Shown here one piece after another: positions 4,772 through 37,800 of a stretch of 64,000 bases of DNA. Numbering within the stretch: position 1 is the stretch's first letter; every line of letters starts with the position of its first letter. Under the pieces are notes generated by a model. That model saw nothing but the letters and a program-made list of their open reading frames with translations, was not told the origin of the DNA and ran no database searches. The position numbers were made by a program, and so were the translations under genes. Source of the DNA: Paraspadella gotoi (lineage: Eukaryota; Animalia; Chaetognatha); the NCBI GenBank assembly GCA_051294375.1, contig CM119263.1, positions 31,355,476 to 31,419,475 of the forward strand. Reading direction: 5' to 3'.

Positions 4772-7700
4772 ATGTCACAGGACGAAGATGTCAAAACCGT
4801 TAGCGCCTTTTGTCGGATCGATGACTCGAGCCACGCCCCCTTGAGCACTGGTCAACCCTCCTTCGCCAAACCATCTCGCATTCTCTCCTCCCTCTCTTCC
4901 TCCTCCTCTTCCTCCTCCTCCTACTATCACCCTCGATTCACTTCCTCCTCCAACAACGGTCGATCCTTCATCGCCTCCGCCGCCACCAACGTCTCCCTCA
5001 ACGGACGCTACGAGATCGAGGGCGCGCCTTTGGAAGAGGGCGTAACGGCGGTCGTCGTACGCGCTCGCGACCTCTTCCGATCGCGACGTCGCGTCTGCGT
5101 CAAGATCCTCCACGCGGAATTCTCCGTCGTCGGTCGTCAGGAGGCGGAGACGCTGCGGCGCCTGACGCGGACTGATCCAAACGACTGGGCGAATCTGCTG
5201 AGATTTCGTGACGGGTGAGGAAAGAAGGAGAGAGGAAGTCAACCTAGGGACTGATAATTGATAACTGCCTTGATAATTTATAACTGCTTGATATAGTGTC
5301 TTTATAATCGTTATGGAATACTTAAGCCAAAACGTGTGCTAGATTGGTCGTAGTGGGCCAAGTCGACTCTTCTACCTCACCTGATTAATGGATAAAAAAT
5401 CCTTGAGAATAACACATAAGAGTCAGCTGGAAAGTATTATTAAGAAGTTATGATAATTAGATAATTAAATACTTGTCAGCTAATATAACCATAAATAAAA
5501 TATTATGGGAACGGGAGGATAGCCTGTGATACCCGGGGCGCGGGGTATTCTCACCAACTGGCGTAGGGGCTGCGGACCCTCAGTGACCGCCTCCTGTCAC
5601 TGGCCATGTTTATACCGGCACCCGTCACATTTAAGCCAAAACCGGGATACCCAGGGATTGAAACCGGGACGCACGGATGGAATGAGATGATTTAGCCTGC
5701 TCAGCCATTGAGACGAGGCTGAGGACGGACAGCAGTGAGGCAGCTTTAAGTCTTGCTGCCACAGGATCCCCCCACCAGACTTCTCCACAGGGGCCTCAAT
5801 CCTGAGGAGATGTCTGAGAGAAGGTTTTGATCTCATTGCCATAGTGAGAGCGCAGCGGGCGATGCGATGCGAGCGAGTCTGGAGCGTTACCAGAGAAGTA
5901 GGGCATAGGCGTGATATGCATACCCTAAGCGACGTAAGCGTGTGGCGCACGGTGCGCAGCGGTTGCTGTTCGAGAGTAGGGCTCACCACTTATGGCAACA
6001 GCCGCGGTTGGCTGTGATGCCCATTGGGATGGGGCATCTCACTGTTGGCTTTGGGGGCTTCCGACCCTCAGTGACGCCTCCAGTCACTGGCGCGGTTACC
6101 CTAGGACGGTCTCGCTTTGCCAACGCAGAGGGAAGTCGTTAGGACTGTGGTTGGAACACTACGCTTGGGATGGTGTGTTCCCCCTCTGAGCAATGGATTT
6201 GGCTGAAGGATGACGGATGTGAGGTGGTGTGAATATACCGCCACAGGATCCCGGGCCAAGACATCACTCAGGTTCCTCAAGCCTGAGAGGTGTCTGACAA
6301 GACTGTTACCATAGTGGGAGAGAGAGAGAGAGAGCGCGAGTTGTGGGGGCATAGGCGTTTTTTGTTGTAGCGTACCCCAGGGGCATAGGCGTTTGTCGTA
6401 GCGTACCCGAAGTCGGCAGGGCATAGGCGTTTGTCGTAGCGTACCCTGAGAAGGTTGCGTGTTCGATAGTAGGGCTCACCACTTATGGCAACAGCCGGTT
6501 GCCTGTGATGCCCATTGGGATGGGGCATCTCACTGTTGGCTTTGGGGGCTTCCGACCCTCAGTGACGCCTCCAGTCACTGGCGCGTTACCCTAGGACGGT
6601 CTCGCTTTGCCAACGCAGAGGGAAGTCGTTAGGACTGTGGTTGGAACACTACGCTTGGGATGGTGTGTTCCCCCTCTGAGCCAATGGATGGCTGAAGGAT
6701 GACGGATGTGAGGTGGTGTGAATATACCGCCACAATATAATTTATTTGCCCGCGGAAAACAATATTAAACCTCCATAGTGATAGCTTAGAAATTTATCAA
6801 AACTTGATTTAATCACAACAATATGCTAAAAAGATCCGTAAATGACTTTGCTACAGATATTTTTTGGGAGAACCTTGTCCGATCCTTTCAGGCTTGAAGG
6901 CATAAAAACATTCTTTCCTCTTCACCAGATTTTCCTTCGGTCCCCACTTCTGCCTCGTCACCGACTTAATCGACTCTTCCTTTCCCGCCGTCGACTTCCG
7001 GCGCCGTCTCGCACCCCTCACCGACGCCGCCTCTTTCCTCCATCTTCTTCGAGGCGTTGCCTTTCATCTTCTTGTCACTCTCGGGTTTTTTCGATGGACA
7101 AATTTTATTCACGCCGATGTCAAACCCGAGAATATTTTGATTGCTGTTGATGGAGATAGAATGAGGGAGAGGTTTGGTGATGGAGCCGATGCTGTCATAG
7201 ATACGGGGTTAAGCAGGGTCGATGCTGAAAATCAATCTGAAAGTGGGAGTAAAGAAACCAATAATAAAATAGAATTATCCAACACCAATGCCAAAGAAAA
7301 TTCAACGTCAGCCAAACCCGAATTCATGACAATACCTCTTGCCAACCATTCTCCTCCTCCCTTCCTCCTTCATCCTCCTCTTTCCCTCCCTCGTCTCCTC
7401 TCTGCCAAACTCATCGACTATGGGAATTCCTTCTCCGACTCTTTCCAAGATCTATCCTCATTCCATGACGACTTCCAACTCCAGTCTCTTCTCTATCGCG
7501 CACCGGAAATCTTCTTTGGCGTTGCCGGTTTCGACGCCGCCATTGATGTGTGGAGTCTCGGCGCCGTTCTCGCCGAACTCTTTGTGGGGCGCCCTCTGTT
7601 TGAGGGGTCGACGCCGCGGGAAGTCGTCGGCTCAATCGTCGAAAGACTTGGGCCGCTGCCGAGGGAGTTTTATCGAAAGGTATAGTTGGGAAGTTTAGTT

Positions 7701-8710
7701 GGTTTGTCCAAAGGTTTAATGGTTTCAAATATAAATATAAGTGTTAATGATTAGTTCAAATTATAAAACTTTTTGGATTTAGAAATTAGGATTAATTAAT
7801 GAGGGAAAAACTTGCGAATAGTTTTATTAAACAATTCTCACTAATCGTAATTGCTTTTCCCAACATTTTCCAGGGAAAGTACTTTTCCGACTTCTCCGAT
7901 CTAACCGGAAGGGCGCGGAGTCGAGGCGATATCGTCGAGTCACTTAGCAACGCGATGGAGACGCGAGACGTCGCCTTCGTCGATTTTGTGGCGCGATGTC
8001 TAGAGATAACGCCGTCGCGACGAATGACGCCCGCGGAGGCGGCGCGCCACGCCTTTTTGGCGCCCATCTGTCCCGTGGGGTTTTTGACAGAGCCGCGTTT
8101 TGATTCTAGGCGGGAGAGAGTGCCTTACGAGGACGCCGGAATCTTAGGAAACTACGAACACAAGATGGCGCGAGGGTCGGCCGGAGGTGCAGGGGCGGAC
8201 CCAACCTTCGTGAGGGCCTTTCCCGGGGAGACGGTCCCCTTGGGATCAGATAAAGTTTTGACGGGCGCATTGAATTCGGGAACGGCGACTCTCTCTGCAA
8301 AAGGTTCGAGGGTAAAACTGATTGAATTGAACCACACCGCTGAAGACGATGCGAACGTCGAAGCCGATGCTTCATCTCCCGAGTCTTTCGCCGACGATAA
8401 TTTGATTTTTTCGAGACGATCAAATTCGAGGCTCGACTCTGCCTTTCGACGCCTGCCTGACTTGCCCGCTGACGATATGCCCACCATTCGCCGCATGCCT
8501 GACTCTCCCGCTGACGGTATGCCCACCTTGCCCGCCGATCGTCGGCCCGCCTCGACGAGCCAATTGATGGCGATGCTCGAGTCTGAAGAAAGGCGTCTCG
8601 ACGACGCGGAGAAAAACCAAAACTCGTTGAAGAGAAAAGCGAAAAATTTGAGTCGGATTTGCGAGGAGGCAAAGAGTGGGAGATCGCCAAGGAAAGAGGA
8701 TGCTTACTGA
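4772..8710 (+). CDS. CMGC Ser/Thr kinase, DYRK/HIPK-like, 3 exons (4772-5214, 6930-7679, ~7874-8710)
   Basis: VCVKIL, HADVKPENIL, KLIDYG, LQSLLYRAPE, DVWSLG and RMTPAEAARHAFL motifs; Gly-rich loop degenerate. Confidence 0.85.
5558..5639 (-). ncRNA. Candidate type-P5 twister ribozyme (LTR-A)
   Basis: Minus strand: P5 UUGGC / P2' AUGU / GA-CGG / P1 / UAA / P2 ACAU / GCC / P3 AGUGAC:GUCACU / P4 / L4 UCCGCAGC / P5' GCCAG; predicted cut between 5612 and 5611. Confidence 0.8.
6044..6124 (-). ncRNA. Candidate type-P5 twister ribozyme (LTR-B)
   Basis: GUUGGC..GCGA GA CCG UCCUAGGG UAA CCGC GCC AGUGAC..GUCACU GAGGG UCGGAAGC CCCC AAA GCCAAC; T1 CGG:CCG covaries with LTR-A CCG:CGG; predicted cut 6098/6097. 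Confidence 0.8.
6535..6614 (-). ncRNA. Candidate type-P5 twister ribozyme (LTR-C)
   Basis: Near-identical to the LTR-B copy, with one C missing in P2 (possible indel error); predicted cut 6588/6587. Confidence 0.75.
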
Positions 8711-8845
8711 ATCTCTCTCTCTCTCTCTCGCCGCGCAGTGAAACTACATCTTATTGTTTTTTATAACTTGTTATAAATGTCTTTCGTGATTTGGTTATTT
8801 TTGCTACATTCCTCTTATTGTTTCCGTTAATTGTTTCGCAAGACA

Positions 8846-9820
8846 ATGCCTCTCGCCAACACTGGCCGTTTGGCCGGAAAGACTCTCTTCATAACGGGGG
8901 CCTCTCGAGGCATCGGCAAAGCCATCGCGTTGAAGGCGGCCAAAGATGGAGCCAACGTCGTCGTCGCCGCTAAGACGGATGTGCCTCACCCCAAACTCCC
9001 GGGTGAGTTTAAGGGATTTGGTTTGAAACTTTTTAAATCTCTTCTTTTTGGTTTTTTTATGATTTTTTTCATTTTCTCTAGGAGTTAATTCTTAAACATC
9101 GTGGTTAAAAAGTAACGATATTAAAATTCAGATGTAGCGTAATTAAAAACTTTAACCCCACAATATGCAAATGAGATTAAGTGGATCCTAATAAACTACA
9201 AATTCTTTCCCCATCTCCTCAAGGCACCATCTACACCGCGGCCGAGGAGATCGAGAAAGCTGGCGGCTCTGCGTTGCCCTGCATCGTCGACGTCCGCAGC
9301 GAGGCGTCCGTGGCCGCCGCCGTCGACAGCGCCGTCGCCAAATTCGGCGGAGTCGATGTTCTCGTCAACAACGCGTCGGCGATCGCGTTGATCGGGACGC
9401 TCGATCTCGAGATGAAGAGGTGAGGACAAGACTGGAGTGGTCGAGACGAGACGAGAAAAGACTTCACTGGATCGGAATGGATGAGACTTGTCAAGACTAG
9501 ATAACATTGGAATTAACAATACGAGACTTAACTGGAGTTGACAAAAAGAGATTAGATTCGATTGGAATTGATGAGGGAAGCCTTTGTTTCGTTTGCTCTT
9601 CTGTTTCCTTTCCATTCTCAGCTGACCTAGTTTTACGCATGCGCGCCTCTACATTTTTAAAACTCCTCCTCCTCCTAGGTACGACCTCATGAACGAGATC
9701 AACGCTCGCGGAACTTTCCTCTGCTCTAAACTATGCCTACCTCACCTCCTCAAATCCTCCTCTCCTCACATCCTCAACCTCTCGCCTCCGCTCAGCATGA
9801 GGCCCCATTGGTTCAAGAAC

Positions 9821-9853
<33 letters not shown>

Positions 9854-10954
9854 TCCATGTGTGTGTTAGGCATGGCCGAGGAGTTCAAGGAACAGGTACG
9901 TTTTTTACACACTTAATTTAACTAAACAAATTCTAAAACAACCCCAGTTTTATTTTTTTTAATGTATTTATTTTCGCGAAATGATGAAGTTTTACCTTTG
10001 TGAGATGAACGCTGAGCCAAACGATTAGTCTTTCTGATGTATTCTTCTTTTATTCTCTTTTTCTTTAAACTGAAGAGTGAAGACCATTTATGCCTTTTTC
10101 TCCGACAACCCATTTCCACAGGGCGTGGCCGTTAACGCCCTCTGGCCCAAAACGGCCATCATCACCGCTGCGATGGAGATGTTGGGCGGAAAGGACATCG
10201 CCAAGGATTGCCGGACGCCGGATATCGTCGCCGACGCAGCTTATGTCATTTTAAGGTACATGAAAAATATATATATGACCAAAATTTGTTTTTATTATTA
10301 AACTTTTTCTTTTTTTTTTCTTCTTAAAGTCGTAATCCCAAGTCGTACTCTGGCAACTTCACCATCGACGAGGGAATTTTAAGAGAAGAAGGAATCAAGG
10401 ATTTCACCGAATATTCCGTCGACCCTAAAGTGACTCCGATGAACGACTTTTTTATCGACGAAGACGTCATCGCTGCTGCGGAGGGAAGGTCGGTCGGCGG
10501 CGCTGCGGCGGCGAGGTCCCTCTCTGATGCAGCGCCCGCTAGCCGAAGCGGCGGCGGCGGCGGCGGCGGCGGCGCTGCGTCGAAGCCCCCCGCTGATGCT
10601 CCCAGCGGAGGCGAAGTTCAGCCCATCTTCGCCGCCATTAAGGAACTTCTCAGTCCCGACGTCGTCAAACGCATCGGCGGGCTCTACGTCTTCCATCTGA
10701 GCGGCAAAGAACCCGGAACTTGGTACTTGGACCTCAAGAACGGTTCCGGCGCAGCGGGACCCGGCGACGCCGCCGCCGACGCCAAGCCCGACGTCGTCAT
10801 GAGTCTCACCAGCGAGAATTTCGCCAAGATGTTCTCGGGGAAGTTGAAGCCTTCGACGGCCTTCATGATGGGCAAGTTGAAGATCAAGGGAGACATGACG
10901 ATGGCCATCAAACTGGAGAAACTCATGAAGCAGATGAATGAGGAGAACAAATAA
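8846..10954 (+). CDS. HSDL2: Hydroxysteroid dehydrogenase-like 2 (SDR + C-terminal SCP2), 5 exons
   Basis: MPLANTGRLAGKTLFITGASRGIGKAIALKAAKDGAN, HVAYTMAKYGMS, NALWPKTAI; SCP2 FSGKLKPSTAFMMGKLKIKGDM. Confidence 0.95.
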
Positions 10955-11416
10955 ATGGGAGAAGGGGTTGGGAGGGAGGGTCGTCAACTGTGATGATTTT
11001 TAGGACGGAGAGGTATTGTTCCGTTGAGGCATTTCACACTATTTCTTGTTTGTTTTTATGGATTCCGGATTTTTTCGTTTTGAAAAATGGATGGAATTAA
11101 AATGCTATCAATGCAATTGATTTTTATTTTTTAGAAATGAGGTGCAGCTTTTCGAGGCCCATGATTAAAAAAAAATCGGGACTCGTTGGGTGATTTTCTA
11201 TTTTTAATCATAAGTTGAGTCGCTCATAATTTTGCACACCTGGTCTTTAAACACATTTATTATACTTTTCGTTGTTTGTTACACTCATCGAGTCGTTGTG
11301 TATTCCGTCTCTGAACGATGAGTATCTTGTATTTCGAAAACTTTTTTTCAGAGAATAATTGATAGCTTCTCCGCCAAAATATTAGACTTTTGCTAAACAT
11401 ATTTATTTAATAAACA

Positions 11417-13081
11417 ATGCTCCGCTTGGGTTTGCAACTTCTGCCCAAATGGGGATTGGCGTCGCGGGCCGCAGAAAAATTGGCCCCTTGCGCCTCCAAC
11501 ACATTGACTTCCAACTCCTTGGGCTCTAACACTTTGGCCTCCGAATTCAGCACGACGTCCGTGGCCCGCGTGAACATGGACAGCGACGAAGTTGGATTCT
11601 TCGAGATGGTGGAAGGATTCTTCGATCGCGCAGCATCCATCATGGAGGATCAATTGGTATCGGAAGTCAAGGGTCGACTCACCAAAGAGGAAAAGATCAA
11701 AAAGGTGAAGGGGATCCTCAAGTGCATCAAACCATGCAACAGCATCCTCGCCATTTCCTTCCCTTTCCGTCGAGACAACGGAGAGTACGAAGTTGTGAAA
11801 GCATGGAGAGCTCAGCACTCTCATCACCGAACGCCCTGCAAAGGCGGCATCCGCTACAGCGACGACGTCAATGAAGACGAAGTCAAAGCCCTCGCCGCGC
11901 TCATGACCTTCAAATGCTCCGTGGTCGACGTTCCCTTCGGCGGCGGCAAAGCCGGAGTCAAGATCAATCCCAAAAATTATTCTGATCGAGAGATAGAGAA
12001 AATCACGAGACGACTCGCGCTCGAGTTGGCCAAGAAGGGATTCATCGGTCCCGGAGTCGACGTCCCGGCTCCGGACATGGGAACCGGCGAAAGGGAAATG
12101 TCTTGGCTCTGCGACACTTACGCCAACACCGTCGCCCATCTGGACATCAACGCTCACGCTTGCATCACGGGGAAACCCATTTCTCAGGGCGGAATTCACG
12201 GCCGAGTCTCGGCCACCGGACGAGGAATCTTTCACGGAGTCGAAAACTTTATCGACGAAGCTAGTTACATGACGATGATCGATCTTCCTCCCGGATTCAA
12301 GGACAAAACCTTCATCGCTCAGGGTTTCGGCAACGTGGGTCTCCACGCCTGCCGATATTTTCATCGCGCCGGATCGAAATGTATCGGCGTCGCCGAGTGG
12401 GACGGTTCCATCTACAACAAGAACGGCATCGACCCCAAAGAGTTGGAGAATTACAAGTTGGAAAAGGGAACCATCGTCGGATTTCCAGGCGCCGAACCTT
12501 ACAAGGGAGAGAACCTTCTCTACGAACAATGCGACATTCTCATCCCCGCCGCATCCGAGAAGCAGATCACATCCTCCAACGCGCACAAGATCAAAGCGAA
12601 GATCATCGCTGAGGGCGCCAACGGGCCCACGACTCCCGCCGCGGATAAGATTCTCATAAAGAACAAAGTTCTCGTCATCCCGGATCTCTACATCAACGCT
12701 GGAGGAGTCACCGTCTCTTACTTCGAATGGCTCAAGAATCTCAATCACGTCTCCTACGGGCGACTCACCTTCAAGTACGAACGCGACTCCAACTATCATC
12801 TCCTCGAATCCGTTCAACAATCGTTGGAGAGGAAATTCGGTCGCGCCGGCGGCGCCATCCCGATTCAAGCGTCGCCGGAATTCCAGGCGCGCATCGCCGG
12901 CGCCTCTGAGAAGGACATCGTCCACTCTGGGTTGGCCTTTACGATGGAAAGGAGCGCCCGCGCCATCATGCGAACCGCGACGAAATACAATCTGGGGATC
13001 GATATTAGAACCGCCGCTTACATCAACTCAATCGAGAAGATCTTTAAGTGTTACGACGAGGCCGGGTTCACCTTCACGTAA
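11417..13081 (+). CDS. GLUD1: Mitochondrial glutamate dehydrogenase, intronless
   Basis: 554-aa ORF; [30 protein letters not shown], animal antenna region. Confidence 0.97.
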
Positions 13082-20241: not shown

Positions 20242-20277
<36 letters not shown>

Positions 20278-23200
20278 CGTGAATTCGGCCCAACTGAGAT
20301 TCGTTCAAGTTTCAGTCTCGAGTTGCGCGGGTGACGTCGAGAAAAGGGTTTGGCGGAGAGAAAGAGGGTTTAATTATAATCTTTGTTAAGTCATTTTTCT
20401 TACTCATTACTTTAGCTTTTAATAGCTATTCATGAGACTAAGAAAAACTTTGTCTGAAATTATGTATTTTGGTATTATAGTACTGAAACTTGTTGCGTCC
20501 ACAGTACTCGAGTTTTGCAAGATGCTTAGGGTTAGGGGAAATCTCGTTTTCACTGGATGCCGGGAAAGTTAAATTAGCTTAATGAAATTTAACAATTTAA
20601 TGTCTTTGTTACATTTAAATTGAGAAAGAAGCCAATATATTTATTTAATGAATAGGTAATTTTAATTTTGGTAGTACCATTATCCTTATTACAAATCTTC
20701 TATAATATAATCCTCTAGTATAATCCCAAGAATCATCTTTCTTTCTACTCCGCCAATCTCGCGCCGACCCCCAGATCCCGGTCAACGACCTTCCCTCCGC
20801 TCCTCTCCAAACTTGCGGCGACGTCGCCCGCATCGAAAAGGACTGCGCCGTCCACGGGCGCTGCCTGAGGGCCCTCCGCGGCGCAGGACTCAGCGAACCC
20901 TGGTGTCAATGCGACGCCGGTTGGGGAGGACTTCGGTGCGAGGAATGTCAAGGGTTCGGGAAGGCTTGCGAGTCGGCGGTGGAGAGTGGGGAGGGGTCGG
21001 TGGAGAGTGGGGAAGGGGTAGAGAAGGAAATTAATGAAGAAAAGAAAGGGATTTTCGCCGAAAGAATTTCTCGAGAGAAAGGAACAAATTTTACAGCGCA
21101 GAAATTTAAAGAGAAAAAGGAAAATGAAGGAATAAAGATTAAAGAGAAGAAGATTAAGAAAGAAGTTATGGGAAAAGTGGAGAGCTTAGGTTCGACTACG
21201 GAGGCGATGATTGATACCAAAATTTCTATTGGCGGACAAACTGATTCGACGATTAAGGAGAAAGTGATGAAGGGAAAAGCAAAGGAGAAGAGGCAAAGAG
21301 GGAAGAAGGAGAATAAAGGAAAGAAGAATAAAAAATGGAAGAAGGAGAATGAATGGAAGAAGGAGAATGAGGGGAAGAAGAAGAATGAAGGAAAGAAGGA
21401 AAGTAAGCTAAGGGCGAATGCGACATCAATCTCCGGAGTCATCGATGATTCAAAGATTTCTAGTTTTAGTGAAATTAATTTGACAACGAAAAAAGTTGAA
21501 AAAGAGGAGAAGGAAGATGAAGGTTTTAATGAAACCAATAAAAGGATAGTTGACTTGGTTTTCACAAATGAGACGTTCACCAGACCGGCCATGGATAATC
21601 AAATCAACTCGACGATGGAGACATTAAAAGTGAATGAGAAAAAAGTGATTGGAATTGTAAAAGAGAAAATGAGTAAAAAAGGAAAGAAGGCAGAAGGGAA
21701 AGAGGTTGAGAAGGTGGAAAGGAAAGAAGTTGAGAAGGCAGAAAGGAAAGAAGTTGAGAAGGCAGAAAGGAAGAAGTTGAGAAGGCAGAAAGGAAAGAAG
21801 TTGAGAAGGCAGAAAGGAAAGAAGTTGAGAAGGCAGAAAGGAAGAAGTTGAGAAGGCAGAAAGGAAAGAAGTTGAGAAGGCAGAAAGGAAAGAAGTTGAG
21901 AAGCAGAAAGGAAAGAAGTTGAGAAGGCAGAAAGGAAAGAAGTTGAGAAGGCAGAAAGGAAAGAGTTGAGAAGGCAGAAAGGAAAGAAGTTGAGAAGGCA
22001 GAAAGGAAAGAAGTTGAGAAGGCAGAAAGGAAAGAAGTTGAGAAGGCAGAAAGGAAGAAGTTGAGAAGGCAGAAAGGAAAGAAGTTGAGAAGCAGAAAGG
22101 AAAGAAGTTGAGAAGCAGAAAGGAAAGAAGTTGAGAAGGCAGAAAGGAAAGAAGTTGAGAAGGCAGAAAGGAAAGAAGTTGAGAAGGCAGAAAGGAAAGA
22201 AGTTGAGAAGGCAGAAAGGAAAGAAGTTGAAAGGAGAAAGGAAAGAAGTTGAAAACCTGAAAAGGAAAGAAGTTGAAAACCTGAAAAGGAAAGAAGTTGA
22301 AAACCTGAAAAGGAAAGAAGTTGAGAAGGCAGAAAGGAAAGAAGATAATGGGGAAAAGAAAGAAGGTAAGAATACGGAAGAAGTAAAAAGAGAAAAAGAA
22401 AAAATAGAAAAAGGAACTGGAGGCGCATCGACTGCGGAGGCGATGATCGACGCTCGGATTTCCGTCGCCAGACGAATTAACTCGACGTCAGCAAAGGTGA
22501 GAGACTCGCGTTAGCCGCTGAATTTTTAAAACTCGCTCTTCCCTGAATTAAGACTGAAGATGCACTTTGTAATCCTACTTCTGATAACCGTTTTTTCTCA
22601 CTTTCTCTATTTCATCCTGTCATCTTCACTTTCCTGTAATTTACTTTTCTTTATCTCATCTTCTCTTTACCTTTTCTCATCCTCTCCCCTCTCCCAGCCG
22701 GCCCTCTCTTCCACCCGGCCAGACGAGCCTCTCAAAGCCGCGACACTCTACGTCCTCATCGCCGTCCTTCTTACGGTCATCTTTGTCCTCCTCGTCTCGG
22801 TGCTGCTTCTGCTGCTGCAGGTGAGAATCATTGCAGCTTCTAAATCATGTAGGAAGCATTCCTGCTACTCCAAATTATTTTAACAGGATTCCTTCTTTAG
22901 TCATTTGCTCTTTAGAAATATTATTTTTGGTCTCTTCCTACACTCCATTCTTCCCTCCAGGTCCGCTGCCTCCGCCGTCGTCTCCGCGACCCACTCTGCC
23001 CCTCTCGCCTGGGAGAGGGCCTCGGCCAGGCGGCCTTCAAGGGTCTCGATCAGACGGACTACTGGACCCACTTCAGACGAATCCTCATGGGCGAAGGCCC
23101 CGTCCTAGGATCCAACTATTCCGAGGTTTTCTGCGACTCGAAATGAAAGTGAATTTCCTCAGTTTTGATTCACATTTGAGAAAATATAAAATTCGTGAAA

Positions 23201-24847
23201 ATTGAACTGATCCCGAGAGGAGAAAGGGGAAGCCCATGGAATAGTGAATGAAGCGCTAAGTGGGCTGAAGAAGACAATCCGTATTCCGTAACATCAACGC
23301 CCTCTTGCAGCCATGGGCTATGTCCTCAAGGCGGCTCACGGCCGTCCTCACGTTTTCCCTTGGGCTGGTACTGGGTTGGGATTGAACCCGGCACCTAGTT
23401 GTCATGAATGAATGAACCATTGGGTCTTGACTCACTCCGGAGTTGAAAGTGTGTGGATGGTCGACGAGAGGAGTTCTCCACAAGAAGTGGATAAGTCGAT
23501 GCACCGTTGTTGGTGAGAGGCGCACAAAGCGACGGCAGGGCCAGTCAAATGATCATCAGATTTTTACACCAGCTTAATGGCAAATAATAACGGTGCTCTA
23601 AAAGACCTGAATAAAATGAACAACCAATAATTATAATAATGAGTATGGAAACGTTTATTGATATGAGTCTTTAATGAGTTCAAAAGAGTCTGACGCGAAA
23701 GCTCGGTGATTCGACAAGTTCGCTCGACATGTGCAGCTCGCAGTAGTTCGTTCGTTGGGATTGAAGAGACAGTAATTATTGTGTTAGTGATATAACCGTT
23801 CAATATAAGCAGTCCCTGAGCTTCGGATCAGGCTGTAACACCGAGTTACAGGCGGGTTAAGCGCCCCGTCCCTCTTAACTGCTAGGCGGCCACCGGGCTA
23901 GAACCCTGGACCTTTGGGTTGGGAGGCGAATGACTTGCCTCCGGCACCAATGGCCGCTGATGAGCGGTTGGTGGATTTTAGTCCACCATACATCCCCCCC
24001 TCCTGTAGGGAGAAGTCTGTTGCGTCTCTTCAGTGAATTGTTGGTGGAAAGTTCGTCACCAAGTTGAGGCATGTCGCCTGATGTGTTGTGGGCGTAAAGT
24101 GCATCGCCAGGTTGAGGCATGTCGCCTGAAAGGGTTGTTGTTGCTGTTGTGTTCGGAAGTCGGGCTCACCAATGAAGAGACAGTAATTATTATTGTGTTA
24201 ATGATAGAACCGTTCAATATAAGCAGTCCCTGAGCTTCGGATCAGGCTGTAACACTGAGTTACAGGCGGGTTAAGCGCCCCGTCCCTCTTAACTGCTAGG
24301 CGGCCACCGGGCTAGAACCCCGGACCTTTGGGTTGGGAGGCGAATGACTTGCCTCCGGCACCAATGGCGCTGATGAACGGTTGGTGGATTTTAGTCCACC
24401 ATAGGATTTTATTTACTAACTGCTACAATATGTAAATGAGATTGAAGAACTCGATCTCATTTGAAATGAACCCCAAATTATTCTGCTACAATTTGCCTTG
24501 ACTTAATTTATTTAACTTTTGAATTTGAGGAGGACGAATCTGTGGCGGCTTACAACGTCGGTCGACCCGAGGAGAAAGGATCCAACGACGACGACGACGA
24601 CGTCACTCACGACGTTACAAACCAATTTACTTTCGAAGGCGAGGCTGCGGCCGATGCGAACAGGTGAGCTAGGAACTTAATATATTATATTATACAGTAA
24701 TTTCATTAAAAAAATTGAATGTTCTGCATCCTTAGGTCGTTGGGCAAAAATCGTTACCGTTTCCCCGGATCGGAAATGACCAGGGAACTTTACGAACGAC
24801 GCCAGGTCGATATCAACAACAACAACAACAACAGCAGAAATGATTGA
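18394..24847 (+). CDS. Putative single-pass membrane protein: signal peptide, MAM-like domain, K/E-rich repeat stalk, TM helix, cytoplasmic tail
   Basis: Signal-like VSFVSCLLGFWFCVSAA; MAM-like FSCSF..LCGF..W, ACLRLKFEYQFRGVGFLRV, W..V..EFQLVFHA; TM LYVLIAVLLTVIFVLLVSVLLLLL (~22745-22820); last exons ~24529-24663 and 24737-24847; frameshifts likely from assembly indels. Confidence 0.6.
21697..22343 (+). repeat. 24-bp coding minisatellite (AERKEVEK)n
   Basis: Unit GAAAGAAGTTGAGAAGGCAGAAAG, ~26 copies with scattered 1-bp deletions. Confidence 0.95.
23249..23537 (-). mobile_element. Degenerate tRNA-headed repeat (family 3), related to 27396-27671, with internal deletion
   Basis: Shares GCGCTAAGTGGRCTGAAGAA, GCCATGG and CGGCCGTCCTCACG blocks with the 27.4-kb copy; minus-strand B-box GGGTTCAATCCC; no TSD seen. 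Confidence 0.6.
23808..23883 (-). ncRNA. Candidate type-P5 twister ribozyme, family 2 3' LTR
   Basis: AGCAGU..AGG GA CGG GGCGCU UAA CCC GCC UGUAAC:GUUACA G CCUGA UCCGAAGC UCAGG G ACUGCU; P2 short; predicted cut 23859/23858. Confidence 0.75.
24222..24297 (-). ncRNA. Candidate type-P5 twister ribozyme, family 2 5' LTR
   Basis: Same as 23808-23883 apart from a P3 loop change; predicted cut 24273/24272. Confidence 0.75.
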
Positions 24848-27395: not shown

Positions 27396-27671
27396 TGAAA
27401 TCAAAGGCGCTAAGTGGACTGAAGAATGCTATCTGCAACCCCCTCTAGCGGCCATGGAACGGGTCCTGGGCTTTGAACCAAGCTCGCGGGTTTTCCACTC
27501 CCCCAAGGTGGTTTACGGCCGTCCTCACGCTTCTCGCAGGGTTGGTACCATTGGGCATCGATCCCTGTACCTAATGGTCATGAGCTGATGGTATTACTCA
27601 ATGAGCCACCGGGTCACGAGCGAAGGAGTCATGCTTATAGTTGGGAAAATATATTTCAATGCCCGACTACA
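27396..27671 (-). mobile_element. Probable degenerate solo LTR (family 3) with tRNA-like head and twister-like remnant
   Basis: TG...CA ends, terminal hairpin TAGTTGGG/CCCGACTA, near-duplication AACTT/AACTC on flanks; minus strand GA CGG..UAA..ACC, P3, CUUGG UUCAAAGC CCAGG. Confidence 0.55.
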
Positions 27672-28888
27672 AACTCTTTCTGTTTTGGCATCTACCTTCC
27701 CACCCTCCCACCTCTCCTCTCCTCTCCTCTCCTCTCCTTCCCTCAAACCACAATCGCTTCTCTTTCTCTAAAAATAAAAGAGAAGAAAAAACTTGGTCGT
27801 CATTGAGAATCTATTTTTAAACTTGGGGCGTAATTCAGACGACTGACGGAACCGTAGGCGCTTTTCTTTCTAATATATCTATTTTTAGCTTCTTTTTTCT
27901 TCTTCTCACCTATGGTTTCTCGCGCCTTATTTCGCCTGTTGCTTCGCCTGATTTGCTTTCTTTTTCATATTCCCTCAACTTGACGTATACGTTCGTTGAC
28001 AAACCTCTTTCTATTTCTACTCCTTTAACTAAAGTAAATATTTATTATATTGTTTCATTAGGGTCCCTTTTCTTTTAGTCTCTGCCGAACCAAACCTAGA
28101 CTTGATTCTATAATGGTCGCGATGTTCAATGTCCTGCTTAGTCCCCTTAACTCCCGCTCGATTCTCACTCGCCGTCTACAGCCAGAGTCACTCTCTCACT
28201 TCAGCCACGTTCACAATCTTTCTCTCCCGCCCAATTTTCACTCCATTTCCATCTTCATCTCCATCCATTTACTTCCACCTGTTTCTCACTTCATCCCTCA
28301 CTCCCGCCTTTTTCTCACTCCTCTCACTCCATTTCTCACTCCCGCCTCTTTCTCTCACTCCATCTCGCGCCTCGACTATTTTTGGCGTTTCGTTTCGCTC
28401 CCGCCGCCGAAGACGACGGCGCGGCCACTTTTTATGCGTAAGAATAGCTTTATATAGGAATGCTGAGCCATTACCCCGTCTCGAGTTGACAACGCCAGAG
28501 GACAATCTAGAATCTGCCTTTGGAACCGTTATGCCGTCTCTACATTGACAATGGACGATAACAATGTGATTTCATGATTTATAATTATGTAATTAACCAT
28601 TTTTACTGGAAAATGTGGAAACACATTTTAGCCTCATTTAGGCCAGATTTAGGCTTCTGGGGGTTATCTTTCAAGTCATTTCATAATTCTAAGACCAGAT
28701 GCGATGTTGAAAATTGTATTGCAAACGGCTCTCATGTTTAAATTCCTGGATCTTATGATGAAATGAATGACAAACAACTTGTAAACCTATATGAGTCGAT
28801 CGAGCCTTTGGAACAGAGATTCTCTTAGTACCAAGAATGCTCAACCAGGCGAGGATCGCGTATTCGACTTCCCTACTTTTCGACATGT

Positions 28889-29617
28889 CGCGCGTGCGAT
28901 CGAGCTCGAGGCCAATCTCCTTCGCGCGCGCGATCAAGCTCGAGGCCAATCTCCTTCGCGCGCGCGATCAAGCTCGAGGCCAATCTCCTTCGCGCGCGCG
29001 ATCAAGCTCGAGGCCAATCTCCTTCGCGCGCGCGAATGAGCTCGAGGCCAATCTCCTTCGCGCGCGCGTTCGAGCTTGAGGCCAATCTCCTTCGCGAGCG
29101 CGATTGAGCTCGAGGCCAATCTCCTTCGCTGAGCGCGATTGAGCTCGAGGCCAATCTCCTTCGCGCGCGAAGGCCAAACCTTCTTCGGCAGCGCGATCGA
29201 GCTCGAGGCCAATCTCCTTCGCAAGCGCGATCAAGCTCGAGGCCAATCGCCTTCGTGCGCGCGATCGAGCTCGAGGCCAATCTCCTTCGCGCGCGCGATC
29301 AAGCTCGAGGCCAATCTCCTTCGCACGCGATCGAGCTCGAGGCCAATCTCCTTCGCACGCGATCGAGCTTGAGGCCAATCTCCTTCGTGCGCGCGATCGA
29401 GCTTGAGGCCAATCTCCTTCGTGCGCGCGATCGAGCTCGAGGCCAATCTCCTTTGTGCGCGCGATCGAGCTTGAGGCCAATCTCCTTTGTGCGGCGCGAT
29501 CGAGCTTGAGGCCAATCTCCTTTGTGCGCGCGATCGAGCTTGAGGCCAATCTCCTTTGCGAGCGCGATCGAGCTCGAGGCCAATCTCCTTCGCAAGCGCG
29601 ATCGAGCTCGAGGCCAA
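28889..29617. repeat. ~30-bp tandem minisatellite with palindromic core
   Basis: Unit GCGCGCGATCGAGCTCGAGGCCAATCTCCTTC-like, ~24 copies. Confidence 0.95.
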
Positions 29618-31829
29618 TTTCCTCCTTTTTTTAGACGAAAAGGGACAAAAAACTGAAAAAGAGATCAATTGACGCTGCCGACGCTAAATTTAGACGCCGA
29701 CTCTTTACTGTACGACGACGACGAATTCTCTCAAGAAATGTAGACTTTTTTGTTACTTTTTAGTTGTTTCCGCTTTAATTCGGAGGGACGAGAGAGTGGG
29801 GGTGGTCGAATTTGGTAGAGACGGTTGAATGGGTCGGCTGGGTGAAGTTTTGATTTAGATTTTAATAGCAATTTGAATTGTGATTCTTTTGTTGACAAAA
29901 AAATATGTCAGGCTACGAAGTCAACGGAATTTAGGGGGGAAAAATATAAAAAACGCTCCCACTAAAGTCAAGAGGCGGAAAAACATAAGCCAAGCTAAAG
30001 GGGATAATTTTAGTTTTTAGTGACACCGCGGTTCCCGGATGAGCTACTACTAATCTGACGGTCCTTTATACTTTTTTCTTACGTAAACAAACTTTAAAAT
30101 AAGTTAAAATGTAAAAGCCTATGCGGCGCAACGCTTTGGAATTTCCTTTCCTTTCCTGGCCGTAATAAAGTTGTTAATAAAGTTATAACCCATGGCAAAA
30201 CCTTCCTCTGTAGTCTCTAACCACTCCTCCTTCCTCCTCCTAAATTAAACTCTTCGTCTCCTACCGCCCCTCTCCCCCTCCTCCCCCCTCCCCCTCCTCC
30301 CCCCCCAAGGCGTCGGGCGATAGTACAAAGGACTTTTTCGGCCAAAGGATGAGGAGGAGGAAGAAGAGGATGATAGCCGCCCTCGCGATTTCCCTTGGAT
30401 CGGAGGCGCGGCTTTATTCTCACCTACTCCCCCCATCCCTTGCCCGCCCCCCTCCCGGCCATCGCGCAGCCCGCCCCCTCTGGCCATTCCGTCTCAGGGG
30501 CGGAAATGGAGTCGAACTTTGACCCCGTCGTCCTCCGCCACAGAACGGAGACGCTTTCGATTCCACATTCACCCACGTCATTTTTTTTTATTAGGAGTTA
30601 ATAGTAAATATATAATTATATATGTCGTTAAATCGATGTTTCACATTACTCGCTCTCATTCTGTCCGATTAATGATTTTCATGATCTCTCTGTCTTCATG
30701 TCATTTTAATTTTTTTTTAAATTCTCTCCTGTTTCTGCGTTTCATAATTGTCAATTTACTATGTACATCACTTGAAAAGAATAAAGACGAACTTTTCCTT
30801 CAAACTTTTGGCGCTTTTTCTTTTCGACCAAAAACCGCGGGCGATCGCTAGTTTAAACGAGGCGGCGGCGGCTTCGGTTGCGGCGCCGGCGGCGTTGACT
30901 TGTCCGAGAGTGGGCCATCGTCCATGATTCTTGTCCTCTGCCATCATATTTGACCCCGCCTGACCCCGCCTCCATTTTTTCCCGGACACCCACACTTCTT
31001 TCCGTCGCGTTGCATTTGTTTCTGGTCATATGAATCATACGAGAAAGGAGAAGAGGCGAAGGATGATGAGGAAGAGGAAGAGTAGGATTCTCTTCTTTCA
31101 ATTCTTCTTTCCTTTTTTCTTTTCATTTTATCTTTCCTTTTTTCCTTCCTTTTTTCCCTCCCCCTTTCTTGTTTTCTCCATATATTTTTTCTTTTTCTAT
31201 TTCCTTTTTGACAATTTCTATTTCTCCTCTTTTTCAAATCTCTTCCTCCCTTCTCCTAATAGTTCCTTCTTCTATCCCCCCTTCACATTCTCTTCTTTGT
31301 CCTTATTCCTCCTTATTTAATCTCTCTCTTCTTCCCCTCACTCCTTCCTCCTTCCTCCCTATCTTCTCCCCGAAAGACGTAACTTTGTCAGTCTGAGTTA
31401 TTTTTGCGCTGCTCCGCGGCTCTAGTGGTGATGTACTATTTTTAAGTCCTCGTTTCAGAATATGTCCTCTCTCTCTCGCTCTCGGTTCTCTCTCTCTCTA
31501 GTTGATCAAGCGTTGGCTAAAAATAAATTTAGAGCGAAGAAAGAGGAGGCCGACTTACACCAAAGCAAAAAAAGAGGGGGGAAGCGAAACCACTATTTTT
31601 GGAAATGTCCTTCTCTTAAAAATCTCTTACATTCTGACAAAAATGTCATATTGCCATATTGTCAAAAGACGTAACCAATTTTTTAAGTGAGAAAAACATG
31701 ATCATTGACTTAATTTTCATGTATCAGTAAATCCTAAAATAAAAAAAATTGTTTTCAGAATCTAGGTACTAATAGTTATAGTTACTAATAGTTACTTTTT
31801 TGCTAATAGCTTTTTAATTTTTACTTTAG

Positions 31830-34800
31830 TGGCATCTTACGGATCGCTCGCTCTCTCCTCTAAACGCTCATAATAAACCCATGTCAGGTAATATTTTAAT
31901 TTTTGTTCAAATCTGAATTTAAATTCCGTCACACAACATGAATCTTCTTATCTAACTGTTGCTTCTATTTTCGAGAACGCACGTCCGCGCTCGATCTGAG
32001 CAGCGGGCACAGTGACCTCGCCGCTGGGCACAGTGATCTCGCTGACGGACACCGTGATCTGATCAACATGCGAATCAACGGAGAAAAAGAAAGAATAAGG
32101 GAGCACAATGATTCGATCACTGGAAACAAAAAGAACTCGGATTCCTCTGGGTCATTTCGAAAAAGCGACGTGGAATATTGGGTGAGAATAAAAGTATTGT
32201 TTAACTAAAGTCTTTAGGCCCAAATTAAACGTCGCTTTATCTTAAAATGCTCCCGGTAACACTGAGTGTAAGACATAGATCTTAGAATATTATCAATCTT
32301 ATTTGCATATAGTAGTAAATTATTTCAGGTCTCATTGCGGATTTATGTTCCGTTTTAATATTAGGCATATTTTTGGACTTTTTCTCGCTTTTTTATATTA
32401 ATTGAATCATAGAATATATTGTTATATTTTGATGGAATACTCCCCGGTCTTATATCCCCATCACCCTATTCTCCATCAAGTCGAATCATGAAGTTCTGGT
32501 CATCGAGACTCAGCTGGAGTCTCTTCGACGTCAGCACGCTCTGCAGCATCAGCTCCTGATGCAGCAGTTTCAGCAACTTCAAACGGATATGACGTCGAGA
32601 CAAAATCAGGAGCTGGAGTTTCACACGCGGGTGAGTCGGCGGTGGGGACATTGGGTATTGGTGTTTCGTTGATTAGTCATTCTGCAATCTGCTTTTGAAT
32701 CCGTTGCGTTCAGCGTCTCCTTTTGGTCCAACAAATTCGGCGTCAAACGTCAGCGTCGACGGAGAAAGACGAAGCCGTTTCTCACGGAGGCGTGGAGACA
32801 GGTTTGGTGGGCGTGGAGGAAGATTTGGTGGGCGTAGAGACAGGTTTGGTGGGCGTGGAGACAGGTTTGGTGGGCGTGGAGACAGGTTTGGTGGGCGTGG
32901 AGACAGGTTTGGTGGATTAGTGATGTGATTTAAAAAGCGATAAATCTTTTGCTCATTTCAGATTCGATGAAAGTAGAGAAAACAAAAGGCGTCTCAATGA
33001 TGGAGACCACGACGACGATAGCGACTCCGACGGAGAAAAATGAAACTGAATCGACGAAAGACGAAGAGTTGGAGAGATTTAAACATAAGGACAAATCACA
33101 GCAGAGTTAGTGCACGAATTTTAAACAATAACATTTATATTATTTTTATAAATATGATTTGAATACTGCTTGAATACTATTTTTAAATTTACTATTAGAT
33201 ATTATATTTTATCCAAGGCGCCAACGCATCTCTTCAAGTCAAGAAGCATCTCGCTTCATTCGTTCGACTCAAGCGGCGCCGACAAGAGGCCGACGGCGCC
33301 GGTCAGCCCCACGGCTTTGCGGAAGGCGGCGCCGATCAGTGCCACGGCGTTGCAGAACGCGGCGCCGTTGAATCTCTTTCGCCCACGCGATCTCTGGTTC
33401 GTGAAAATGCGGGGGCGGGAGAAAGGGGGGCGGGAATGGGTGAGACTCACACAGAGAAGTGAATTACGACCGACGATGAGTAAACGTAAAATTGTGTAAA
33501 AAAGGGAATGTGAGTGAAGACGCGACCCCCGACGCCTTTGCGTGACGAATCATATCGATTTTCTCAAGGTCACTCACATCGTGAGATCCAAATGCAATTT
33601 GCTTTTCCTTCTGGGTTTTTTTTTTTTGAGGGGGGGGGAATTAGTTTAGGGAAATTCGATCAATTATTCTCTTTTGTTTGGTTTTCTTGTTTATCTCATC
33701 TTCGGAGGCGTGGGTTCGAATCTCACCGCTGCAACCACATTTAAGGAAGAACTCATGGATTTCTAGAACGAAATCAAAGGATATTTTATTCTGAGATTAA
33801 AGGTGACGGTGAGATCAATGCTACTGAAACTAAGGGAAAGCTAAGTCTATTTATAACATCGATCTTGCAATCTGATTGGTCGATTCCGGTTCGGCGAATC
33901 CATTCCATTCTATATCCAAGAAATCTTTTTTTTCTTTTCTTATCCTTTAGCCGGCTTTGCGTCAACGGTCGATGCCGGCCGGATTCGCCGGATGGGCGAC
34001 GGCGTCATCGCCTTCCGCCGGTAGTGACGTCCATCGCGTCAGTCCGAATCCTCGACGCCGATTTCTCGATCCCGCCGTCGACGTCGGAGTCTCGCTTCCG
34101 TCTCCGCCGCCGCCGGTGAACTCTGCAGATCCGCGGCGCTGCAGCGGAGGCGAGAAAAGCGTCGGCGGCGGCGGCGAAGACTTTCCTCTCAGAAAAACAG
34201 GTGGAGTCTTCGAGAGGCGAACGAAGTATTAGTTTTTTTTAATTTTGACTAACGTCAAGGATTGAATATTTGTTTTCGTGAGACAATAAAATACAATCGA
34301 AAGTAGATATTGCTGGAAACAATTTAAAACTTTTCGTCTTCACCAGCTTCTGAACCAAATCTAAAAATGAAGTCCGCTCTTCGTCAAAATCTGTTCAACC
34401 GGAAAAACGTTTCACCTTTAGTCAGAAAGAAGCAGATCAAAAGTGCGGAACTTACCAACACCGTCGTTCCTGGCATCACCATTGGTAAGTTGCGAGGGAA
34501 TTTGTGTATAATAAGATAATATGATGCTGTCATTGTGCGTCATGATTGTTTAAAGCTGCTGAACGTATGTTACAGATTGAAGAGACAGTAATTATTGATA
34601 AGTGTTAATGACAGAACCGTTCAATATAAGCAGTCCCTGAGCTTCGGATCAAGCTGTAACACCATGTTACAGGCGGGTTAAGCGCCCCGTCCCTCTTAAC
34701 TGCCAGACGACCACCGGGCTAGAACCCCGGACCTTTGGGTTGGGAGGCGAATGACTTGCCTCCGGCACCAATGGCCGCTGATGAACGGTTGGTGGATTTT

Positions 34801-37800
34801 AGTCCACCATAAGATGTACGTATTAAAAAATAAAATGCCCTCAGTTTAATACTTACGAATTGAATTTTTTACGTTTTTGATATTCTATATGTAATTAATG
34901 AAATATTTGAATATTAATTGGAAAACTAAATTATTATAAGTATTGCCAAAATTATAAAAACCTTTGAAAACCTTATCAAAATATACGAGAAATGATCGAA
35001 ACTAATTCAATATGTAAATGAGATTCGAGAACTGAATTTCATTTAAAACGAACAACATATATTTATTATTATTTATTATTGTTTTTGTGAATCTCAGAAT
35101 CTTGCGATGATCTTCCTGCTTCATCTCCTTCTAATCCGATGTCGCCTCTTTCGTCCTCGTCTCTTTTTCCCACTCGAGGTTTGAACCAATCCTAATTTTC
35201 TTTATCGCCGTCACCGCGATATATCTTATTTATTTCATATACTTTTTTAATAGATATCCTTTGCCTGCTACTATTTACGTCATTAACTATATATTACACT
35301 TCCACTTTTTTGGTTTAATATTTATGCCACTTCCCCTCACGCGCTCTCATCCAGAAAAGTATTTTTGTCGACCGAAATCCTCAAATTCGATGATTTTCAG
35401 ATTTTGAGGCTCATTTGAACTTATGCGTTTTATGTTTTTGTGATAGTTTTAGTAGTGTTTGTGTTTGTTTTTTTTTTTTTAATTGACTGATCCTATACGG
35501 ACTTAACTAAGTAAAATTATTTTTAAAAAATATATTATTTATAAAACTTATTAGCTAAGTTTCTAGTTAAAAAAAGTTAATGACGCTGATCGCAAATTTA
35601 ACTAATATATACAAACATGTGATATTTTTAGAATGAACTGGTATACATATCTATTTTCCGTTTTATAAATTGCATCTTAACAATATTAACGTTATATCCT
35701 TTACACTCAAGGCATGCCCTTGATTGGGACCGTCAAATCTCCCTTCTTATCTCCCACAATGAATGTATCCAAGATTCCACAATGTATTTCTTCCGCTGTC
35801 GTGCACGCCTCACCTTCGCTGCCAAATTTGAGGCGGGTGCTCGTGGGTGAGTACGTTGCTCAGATGTTAATGTTCAATCAATTAATTCTTATTTTTTGAG
35901 TAATATTTCAAAAACATTTTAAACGTAATCTTATTTTTCAAATAAAAGTTCGTTCTATTAAAACTATTTAAAGAAAGTCATTAAATATTAAGCAATACAA
36001 AAAATTTGGTCTCAGGTTGGAGCGGTGACTCGGCGGCCTCGTCTGTTTGGCCGACAATCCACTCGCCCCCTGGGCCGACGCGGTTCTCCCGTTCCGTTCC
36101 GCATTTGCCTGCCGCCGCCGCTGCTGCTTCCCTCGCTGCCGGCGCCACTGCCACCGCCGCTGCTGTCCCCTCTGGTGTCCCATCACCGACCAATCATTTT
36201 TCCTTCCACTACCCTTTTAACTTTCCTCTTTTAAATGGTTAATAATTTAAATTAAAGCGTATTGATTAATAATTTACATATATATATATATAGGATTTCT
36301 ATAAAATATTTATAATTTCATCCCAGGTTCTGACTCTTCGTCCGTCGCGGCGCAAATGAAACTCTTGCATCAATTAAATCCCCAAAATGTTGGTGAGTTG
36401 ATGCGACGATTTAATTATGTGGCGAGTGATCATTGGCTTGTGCGGGAGGTAGATGCCTTTCGTCCAATGAATTTACATAGGTTCACAAATGAATGCGTTA
36501 AATCGATTCGATTTTCGTCCAGGATTTTCGGTCTCAAAACCCGTTGTGAACAAATCAAACTCAGCTCCTCTTACCAATCACGGCCCAGTTAACAATAACA
36601 ACAACAACAACGATGGTGCCAATTTGCAGATTAACTATCTAAAGCAGGTAGGTTTTGTTAGATTATTTAATAATTGCGAACAAATTGTTTGCGTAAAATC
36701 ATTACCAGGTTTTTTCTTATATCTTATAGCGCCTGCGTCAAACCGTTTTAAATCGCTCCTCGTCCAAGAATTTCGTGGATACTTTTGAGGATGAAACCAT
36801 GATAAATTATGTGGATGAGAATCGACGACGTCGTCCGAGTGGAGTTTCGGACGAGGCACCATTCGTCAACGATGACGTGGAAATCGTGAGGGAAGTTCGC
36901 GCTTTTGATGGAATCAAAGAGGCGACGGCGTCGGCACGATCGAGAAAGTCGGAGATAAGGAACAATCATAAGGTTGAGCGAGTGGAGTGAATGATAGTAG
37001 CGAGTGAAGCAAATAGATTTAGCGTAGCCGTTCCTTCCTTTTCAGCTTTCGAGGTCACCAAACCTTGGATCTTTCGACGGAGAAGGAAATCACGCGACGA
37101 CGGGTGCGTAGGCTCTTGTTGTCGTCGTCGTCGTCGTCGCATTTAATGTTCAATTCAATTAAGTCGAGGACGACGCGAAATTTGTTATTTTATTTTCCGT
37201 TAGAATGAATTAAATTATTTAATCTGGAATCCTCTTTTCTTTCCAGCCCTCGCCTACGACACGCTCATGTTGAAACACTCGTGTCAATGCAACAACAACG
37301 GGAAACACATCGAACACAGCGGACGAATTCAGAGCATCTGGTCAAGATTGCACGAGACCGGGTTGGCCGCAATGTGCAATAAGATTCGTTGCAGGAAGGC
37401 AACGGGTGACTTGAGACGAATTTAATACTTTTATTTATGAACAATTTGTTTGTTCGTTTCTTTGTTACTTCATCTTTCGTTCTTTACTTCGTTGCTTAGT
37501 TCGTTACCTTGTTCTTTTCTCATTTCAGTGGAAGAGCTGCAACTGGTCCACAGTGAACCGTACAGCCTATTGTATGGGACGACTAATCCTTTGAACCGAC
37601 AGAAACTCGACGGGAGGAAGCTGGCGGATCTGCCGCTTCGTTTCGCCGTGCTGCCCTGCGGCGGCGTCGGCGTCGACTGCGACACAGTCTGGAACGAACA
37701 GTTCACCTCCGTCGCCGCCAGAATGGTCAAATTTTTTTACCAGACTGTGTTTAATTAGTTGATTTGACGTTGAAACTGACGAGACCCTTTCTCGTTGACC

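Follow-up and report, generated by a model that had tools for sequence, protein, structure and literature searches.

Do animals harbor retrozymes with long terminal repeats (LTRs), and can such elements use a ribozyme other than the hammerhead? The question is raised by three insertions in a 64,000-nucleotide stretch of the genome of the chaetognath Paraspadella gotoi (contig CM119263.1, positions 31,355,476 to 31,419,475; hereafter the window), in which an earlier sequence-only reading had noticed candidate twister ribozymes. Its premise that described LTR retrozymes are plant elements with hammerheads agrees with the literature found, where LTR retrozymes carry type III hammerheads and occur primarily in plants (bioRxiv 10.64898/2026.07.22.740005, July 2026); statements on published work refer throughout to the available parts of the sources cited. 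We observe the anatomy of LTR, site of primer binding (PBS), polypurine tract (PPT) and target-site duplication (TSD), a twister core conserved in three diverged LTR types, and both element families in RNA. We conclude that these are likely animal LTR retrozymes that use twister. The best explanation, which we consider probable, is a unit that is transcribed by RNA polymerase III (Pol III), cut by the twister, circularized and copied by a Gypsy-type helper.

Anatomy of the insertions and their twister-type cores

All coordinates are those of the whole window, and all three insertions lie on its minus strand (Table 1). Locus 1 (6734-5504, 1,231 bp) has three LTRs in the order LTR A1, interior 1, LTR A2, interior 2 and LTR B, family 2 (24403-23762, 642 bp) consists of LTR C1, interior C and LTR C2, and a solo type C LTR occupies 34811-34578. 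This placement, the strand and the 4-bp TSDs, all given in the sequence-only reading, were borne out at each of the three insertions (ATAT at locus 1, ATCC at family 2 and ATCT at the solo LTR). The LTRs measure 229-260 bp and the interiors 238, 227 and 182 bp, and no open reading frame (ORF) of at least 150 amino acids overlaps the elements. A1 and A2 are 97% identical, B is 61-62% identical to A, and the C copies are 93-96% alike; C is 50-52% identical to A or B, with the shuffled control at 47%, and blastn between the two families found no match. The proposal of two families with little similarity is upheld by these values, but locus 1 itself holds two LTR subtypes, so that three LTR types (A, B and C) are present, not two. 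The anatomy claimed to be common to both families was found in the LTR and interior lengths and in the PBS; the PPT departs from it, being degenerate in interior 1 and present in interior 2, where it is G-rich, and in interior C. The PBS matches the tRNA-Trp PBS of Kojima 2024 (Fig. S2) at 12 of 13 nt in type C and 11 of 13 in locus 1. Because one common position is mismatched in all three copies, the assignment of tRNA-Trp as primer is likely, not certain.

A descriptor of the twister P5 permutation, run on both strands of the window, gave exactly six matches, one per LTR, with U(-1) at 6588, 6098, 5612, 24273, 23859 and 34680. The same six matches and no extra were obtained when one deviation was allowed. 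Dinucleotide shuffles (n=200) had a mean of 0.015 matches per window, a significance that is overstated because the descriptor was composed after the motif was seen. The U-A cut step followed by A, with the conserved G-A opposite, is present in 6/6 LTRs. Pseudoknot T1 consists of three Watson-Crick pairs in every core, CCG/CGG in type A and CGG/CCG in types B and C, and this inversion is a compensatory swap; the two pairs of pseudoknot T2 are likewise intact in all six. P3 has 7/7 pairs throughout, with a different sequence in C, and P4 (3-5 pairs) and P5 (5-7 pairs), in which the chain ends, differ in sequence between LTR types. P2 is perfect in B and has one C-A mismatch or bulge in A and C. 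The order of the conserved blocks matches the Rfam twister-P1 consensus and the topology given in PMC5408937. When a covariance model was built from A1, A2 and B only, the three C cores ranked next at E values, roughly calibrated, of 0.0009-0.004, and the following match was at 1.9. A twister core of P5 topology in all six LTRs, as the sequence-only reading had claimed, was confirmed by the descriptor and by the pair-by-pair check, and the descriptor also recovered its cut positions. The predicted cut-to-cut units are 490, 486 and 414 nt, which reproduces the ~490/486 and ~414 nt put forward before. T4 runs are absent from the A and C units; this is expected by chance and was not used as evidence.

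Table 1. Positions of the elements, their cores and associated features in the 64-kb window
Feature	Position	Strand	Remarks
LTR A1	6484..6734	-	type A, 251 bp; box A-like at 6683, degenerate box B-like at 6647
Core A1	6535..6614	-	P5 topology; GA at 6601; predicted cut 6588/6587; P2 5' strand one base shorter than in A2
Interior 1	6246..6483	-	238 bp, non-coding; PBS from 6481; degenerate PPT
LTR A2	5991..6245	-	255 bp; 97% to A1
Core A2	6044..6124	-	GA at 6111; predicted cut 6098/6097
Interior 2	5764..5990	-	227 bp; PBS from 5988; G-rich PPT ~5764-5776
LTR B	5504..5763	-	second subtype, 260 bp; box A-like at 5707, box B-like at 5664
Core B	5558..5639	-	GA at 5626; predicted cut 5612/5611; inverted T1 pairs compared with type A
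TSD copies, locus 1	6735..6738 and 5500-5503		ATAT on minus strand
Protein-kinase gene intron	5214..6927	+	holds locus 1 antisense; spliced out (GT..AG) in run X1
LTR C1	24173..24403	-	231 bp; box A-like at 24363, box B at 24318
Core C1	24222..24297	-	GA at 24284; predicted cut 24273/24272
Interior C	23991..24172	-	182 bp; PBS 24171-24159; PPT ~23991-24004
LTR C2	23762..23990	-	229 bp; 96% to C1
tRNA-like head in C2	23886..23957	-	72 nt; 7-bp acceptor-like stem, T-arm with box B; directly upstream of twister core
Core C2	23808..23883	-	predicted cut 23859/23858
TSD copies, family 2	24404..24407 and 23758-23761		ATCC
Solo LTR, type C	34578..34811	-	234 bp; 93-94% to C1 and C2; TSD ATCT
Core of solo LTR	34629..34704	-	predicted cut 34680/34679; two differences from C1, both keep pairing as G-U

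The tRNA-like head and the relationship to Helenus

Upstream of the core, each LTR carries box A- and box B-like motifs, of which the box A of A2 is altered and the box B of type A is degenerate. Neither ARAGORN nor Rfam called a tRNA over the tRNA-like head of C2. The head is likely a Pol III promoter; for the Helenus elements, Pol III transcription itself is unvalidated (PMC10886601). Helenus elements are TRIMs (terminal-repeat retrotransposons in miniature) of animals, that is, short non-autonomous LTR elements with box A/B, PBS, PPT and a 4-bp TSD (Kojima 2024, PMC10886601). Because they combine a tRNA-like box A/B head with a PBS, a PPT and 4-bp TSDs, the chaetognath elements fit the Helenus (TRIMp3) definition as far as tested, and their sizes of 642 bp in family 2 and 1,231 bp in locus 1 with its three LTRs fall in the Helenus range of ~300-1300 bp. 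The architecture given in the sequence-only reading is retained here; the reading had overlooked the tRNA-like head that points to Helenus, the palindromic nature of P1 and the A/B chimerism of locus 1.

The nearest Helenus families are Helenus-2_SyJa and Helenus-2_SyUm of Synergus wasps, which share the Trp PBS, the TGTGG start and a mid-LTR tRNA head, and whose LTRs hold, judged by eye, a hammerhead-like core in the slot that holds twister here. We take this stretch to be a type III hammerhead, with a GUC step, helix I, CUGAUGA, helix II and GAAAC. The hammerhead-like core behind the tRNA head of Helenus-2_SyJa-LTR and Helenus-2_SyUm-LTR is unremarked in the available text of PMC10886601, which mentions ribozymes only in one reference title. 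The Synergus Helenus-2 elements are therefore candidate animal LTR retrozymes with a hammerhead, in sequence already in print, and the ribozyme module looks swappable, twister here and hammerhead-like in the wasps. Loop-motif searches of the available Helenus supplement, which were not exhaustive, found no twister-like context in any LTR.

RNA, the proposed life cycle and its alternatives

Run X1 is from the same species: one contig (depth 143) spans exons of the kinase gene that hosts locus 1, with two GT..AG introns spliced out and 0 differences, and depth is 0 in the intron bin 5235-5381. Because its contigs are spliced, we judged X1 to be RNA. The RNA evidence consists of contigs of one sample from one study, in which contig depth is a poor measure that cannot rank expression and RNA ends are invisible. 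Both families are present, with 647 contigs on 4500-8900 and 1,002 on 23991-24450, and a 231-nt interior-2 contig reaches depth 897.5. The diversity of contig flanks shows that the family is multi-copy. In C1, variants of at least 2% hit 2 of the 68 core positions, as against 18 of the 163 positions elsewhere in the LTR (p 0.03, Fisher test, one-sided). Such variants occur at three of the five P3-loop positions, and one of the two core variants (4% of depth) breaks a T1 pair. In type B, the extra base that the window copy has at 5604 is absent from most of the X1 depth (9,155 of 11,467), which gives the Rfam consensus spacing. Separately, X1 depth falls about tenfold ~25 nt before the LTR 3' end (24167-24198), in AT-rich, indel-prone sequence, and this fall is either an RNA end or an alignment effect. 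Run X2, from another study with another organism label, holds family-1 pieces at least 95% alike on 5556-5999 and 6399-6672 at depth 2-6, and the kinase exons of the host gene were not present in it; these pieces may stem from a relative, from contamination or from DNA. X3 and X5 matched a CT microsatellite only, and X4 and X6 matched nothing.

In the life cycle that we consider probable, Pol III would start at the tRNA-like head and run through both LTRs, and the twister-type fold is predicted to cut the same U-A step in each, releasing a 414-490-nt unit. With both cuts made, the transcript would lose its terminal redundancy (R), on which normal LTR reverse transcription depends. In plant retrozymes, a missing R is resolved by circularization and copying round the circle (PMC4918200). 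Here, a host RtcB-type ligase could seal the 5'-OH and cyclic-phosphate ends into a circle; RtcB ligates animal retrozyme monomers in vitro (PMC7229834). tRNA-Trp would then prime reverse transcription on the circle, and copying beyond one unit would restore two LTRs or tandem arrays. A Gypsy-type helper element would supply the copying, with Gypsy integrase generating the 4-bp TSD. In type C LTRs we also noted a 9-bp long-range helix, of approximate extent, between 24379-24395 and 24207-24215 on the minus strand, which surrounds the tRNA-like head and the twister core and could bring the ends of the type C cut-to-cut unit together, aiding ligation.

Several observations weigh against this life cycle, beginning with the ribozyme itself. 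Over the elements, Rfam gave no match at the gathering score. The check with twister-P5 (RF02684) that the sequence-only reading had proposed failed, with no match at that score and none at E<=10 in the four stretches scanned, including those of 176 and 181 nt; the solo LTR was scanned at the gathering score only. Twister-P1 gave weak matches of ~15 bits on the three family-1 cores (15.4 bits on core B) against a gathering score of 67. P2 of type C is weak, with two pairs plus C-A or three with a bulge, and type C has A-U where a near-invariant G-C pair closes P4. In type B a C replaces the leading A of AAGC, and the type A core adopts an alternative structure in its minimum-energy fold. P1 forms no predicted intramolecular hairpin and has at most 1-2 pairs over a tetraloop. 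As circles, the units fold with moderate stability (z about -2.5, 52-59% paired), and the antisense strand folds about equally well in two of the three. In RNA, the family-2 cut site shows no X1 depth dip and is bridged by contigs, which fits circles and uncut RNA equally. The LTR body (24199-24406) exceeds the interior ~10x in summed contig depth, a ratio that a dominant unit-length circle would not predict. Part of the RNA is read-through, since 38 contigs leave the LTR start and 21 leave its end for unrelated flanks. A summed depth of ~2,000 is likewise attained by an unrelated repeat (24423-24450). Finally, no helper element was identified within the window. The only reverse transcriptase (RT) seen there, at 40604-43690, is DIRS-like in appearance and an unlikely helper because such an element would not make 4-bp TSDs; it lies among overlapping ORFs with an RT domain and frame breaks at 39429-44642 (+), by eye a DIRS-like tyrosine-recombinase retroelement.

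Because there was no match above the Rfam gathering threshold, we file the core as a twister-type variant and not as a member of RF02684. By analogy, the deviations in the cores follow the tolerance pattern of natural twisters, in which flaws in P1, P2 and most of P4 are tolerated and changes in the pseudoknots or catalytic residues are not (PMC11662667). Natural twisters withstand loss of P1 and mismatches in P2 or P4 (PMC5408937, PMC11662667). To read core B as P1-type, as in the Rfam alignment, was rejected: T1 is unpaired there, whereas it pairs in the P5-type reading. Rfam found no hammerhead in the elements, where the twister-type core takes that place, and exact-pattern scans of metagenome contigs gave no match.

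The P1 named in the sequence-only reading was not recovered as a normal hairpin. In its place is a segment of 6-8 nt that is fully self-complementary in all three types, with G-U allowed and, in B, without its first base; its duplex energies are -8 to -11 kcal/mol. The stunted P1 may be either dispensable or a site of pairing between two ribozymes. There is a parallel in the axolotl hammerhead: one of its helices has a single pair and a palindromic tetraloop, and it is the dimer that cuts better (PMC7229834). If the two LTRs of one transcript were to form a double twister, the circle junction would be one stunted ribozyme and might resist re-cutting. A larger proposal is that animals harbor a Pol III-driven LTR retrozyme lineage with an interchangeable ribozyme module, in which the LTR twisters form a domain-swapped double ribozyme through the P1 palindrome, only two-LTR transcripts are cut, and the circle, with its one stunted ribozyme, is stable and abundant; we think this less likely than not. 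Folding models, which omit pseudoknots, gave a P1-swapped double structure as the two-copy minimum-energy fold for B and C and not for A. The two-copy energy gain was no better than with scrambled P1 (scrambles as good or better in 200, 24 and 174 of 200 for A, B and C), and the predicted probability of P1-P1 pairing between both LTRs of one transcript was 0.000-0.009. Support for a dimer in the folding tests is mixed, and what would argue for it is the conserved palindrome. The literature search found no natural dimeric twister. Because P1 is reported dispensable in twisters (PMC5408937, PMC11662667), cleavage by a monomer is at least as likely as cleavage by a dimer.

Alternatively, an active twister might merely trim linear RNA, excising the unit from read-through transcripts or reducing its level, with retrotransposition proceeding through an uncut fraction with a long R or through linear strand transfer, and no circle. 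In Schistosoma Perere-3, the role of twisters is to process linear retrotransposon RNA at its 5' end (PMC8501958), Helenus without a known ribozyme also forms tandem arrays (LTR-11_DR, PMC10886601), and a transcript running from the tRNA-like head past the 3' LTR would carry ~200 nt of terminal redundancy. The contigs that bridge the cut site, many with genomic flanks, are also in keeping with this route. Against this route, cutting both LTRs destroys the normal strand-transfer template; why three diverged LTR types should all have retained the core is then difficult to see, unless it is the cut product that serves as template. The lack of a depth dip at the cut site also weakly disfavors cleaved linear RNA as the main form. 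We regard a linear route without a circle as rather doubtful.

It is also conceivable, and we think unlikely, that the insertions are ordinary Helenus TRIMs that use the standard LTR route and whose fold is non-catalytic or decayed, for example a packaging or dimerization signal. Palindromes are typical of retroelement RNA dimerization signals, and the stunted P1, the deviations in P2, P4 and L4 and the lack of an Rfam twister match at threshold speak for an inactive fold. Among nine predicted Xenopus retrozyme elements, one showed cleavage in vitro (bioRxiv 10.64898/2026.07.22.740005). Against an inactive fold, LTRs with otherwise little sequence in common have all preserved, with compensatory change, the UAA, the catalytic G and A and the two pseudoknots, and RNA variants are rarer within the core. 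It is highly improbable that the motif arose by chance within a single sequence that is repeated: the descriptor was written post hoc and its six matches amount to three independent sequence types, but the shuffled windows, the cross-family covariance-model match and the same slot in each LTR, just behind the tRNA-like head, all speak against chance.

The chimeric locus, its surroundings and known retrozymes

The outer LTRs of locus 1 differ (A and B), so it is not a simple retrotransposition product, and by its sequence we read it as an A/B chimera. Its interiors share an identical first 16 nt and are 63% identical overall, and in an X1 contig the PBS follows immediately on a B LTR's 3' end (loose end at 5999). 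B plus interior 2 is therefore likely a natural unit, and the join lies close to the PBS or at it. Such a join is what plus-strand transfer would produce if A and B templates were packaged together; the alternative is later DNA recombination. Because of the chimerism, the 486-nt unit would be a hybrid. In a further X1 contig (depth 142), the element is fused with its own opposite strand at a GGATCC palindrome between PPT and LTR start (6246/6734); this contig is either a fold-back artifact or a head-to-head copy.

A second dispersed repeat in the window, the AT-rich D13, occurs at 24425-24490, 35007-35072, 38468-38533 and 44970-45035. Two of its copies lie <200 bp from the family-2 insertions, and D13 reaches a summed depth of ~2,000 in X1. 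Minisatellite arrays occupy 21652-22399, 28857-29667 and 32768-32935, with periods of ~24, 34 and 21 bp. Long intron-poor host genes were seen at 11414-13081, 52729-53904 and 62628-63437, comprising a glutamate dehydrogenase of the mitochondrial GDH1 type and, by eye, a short-chain dehydrogenase and a calcineurin-like phosphatase, in keeping with a compact animal genome.

Of the systems already described, the LTR retrozymes of plants (Cervera et al. 2016, PMC4918200; PMC5680766, PMC7761336) are likewise non-coding, with a 4-bp TSD, PBS and PPT, a ribozyme motif in matching positions of the two LTRs, solo LTRs, arrays of three and a predicted unit RNA without an R region. They differ from the chaetognath elements in host, in carrying a type III hammerhead and not a twister, in a Met and not a Trp-like PBS, and in unit size (600-1000 nt there, 414-490 nt as predicted from sequence here), and the tRNA-like head is found here. 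With the type-P5 twister (RF02684; PMC5408937) the cores share the order GA, T1, UAA, P2, GCC, P3, P4 and L4, both pseudoknots and the P5 end; they differ in giving no match to its Rfam model, in having a 6-8 nt palindrome as P1, and in having CGG/CCG in T1 where the Rfam twister-P1 consensus has GGG/CCC. In the Schistosoma Perere-3 variants, too, an animal retrotransposon contains a twister whose P1 is weak or missing, but Perere-3 is autonomous and non-LTR, with a single ribozyme at its 5' end (PMC8501958). Animal non-LTR retrozymes (PMC7229834; bioRxiv 10.64898/2026.07.22.740005) have short units and tandem ribozymes; they differ in using type I hammerheads, in having no LTR, PBS or PPT, and in their link to Penelope-like elements.

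Twisters are known from the non-LTR Perere-3 (PMC8501958) and from viroid-like circles. In the literature covered, including the available parts of PMC6765202 and 10.1101/2022.07.19.500677, we found no twister in an LTR element; Repbase, the lists of the original twister survey and the supplements of the preprints and of PMC11662667 lay outside this scope and, like the Helenus supplement, which was mostly covered by motif search only, could already contain such sequences. All the parts are known separately, and it is their combination that appears to be new.

The predictions that follow are precise, covering cut sites, circle sizes and the activity of single versus paired ribozymes. If the proposed life cycle is true, the LTR retrozyme way of life would extend from plants to animals and from hammerhead to twister, the production of a circular template without R would become a defined job of the twister, and a link would be drawn between the Helenus and retrozyme classes.

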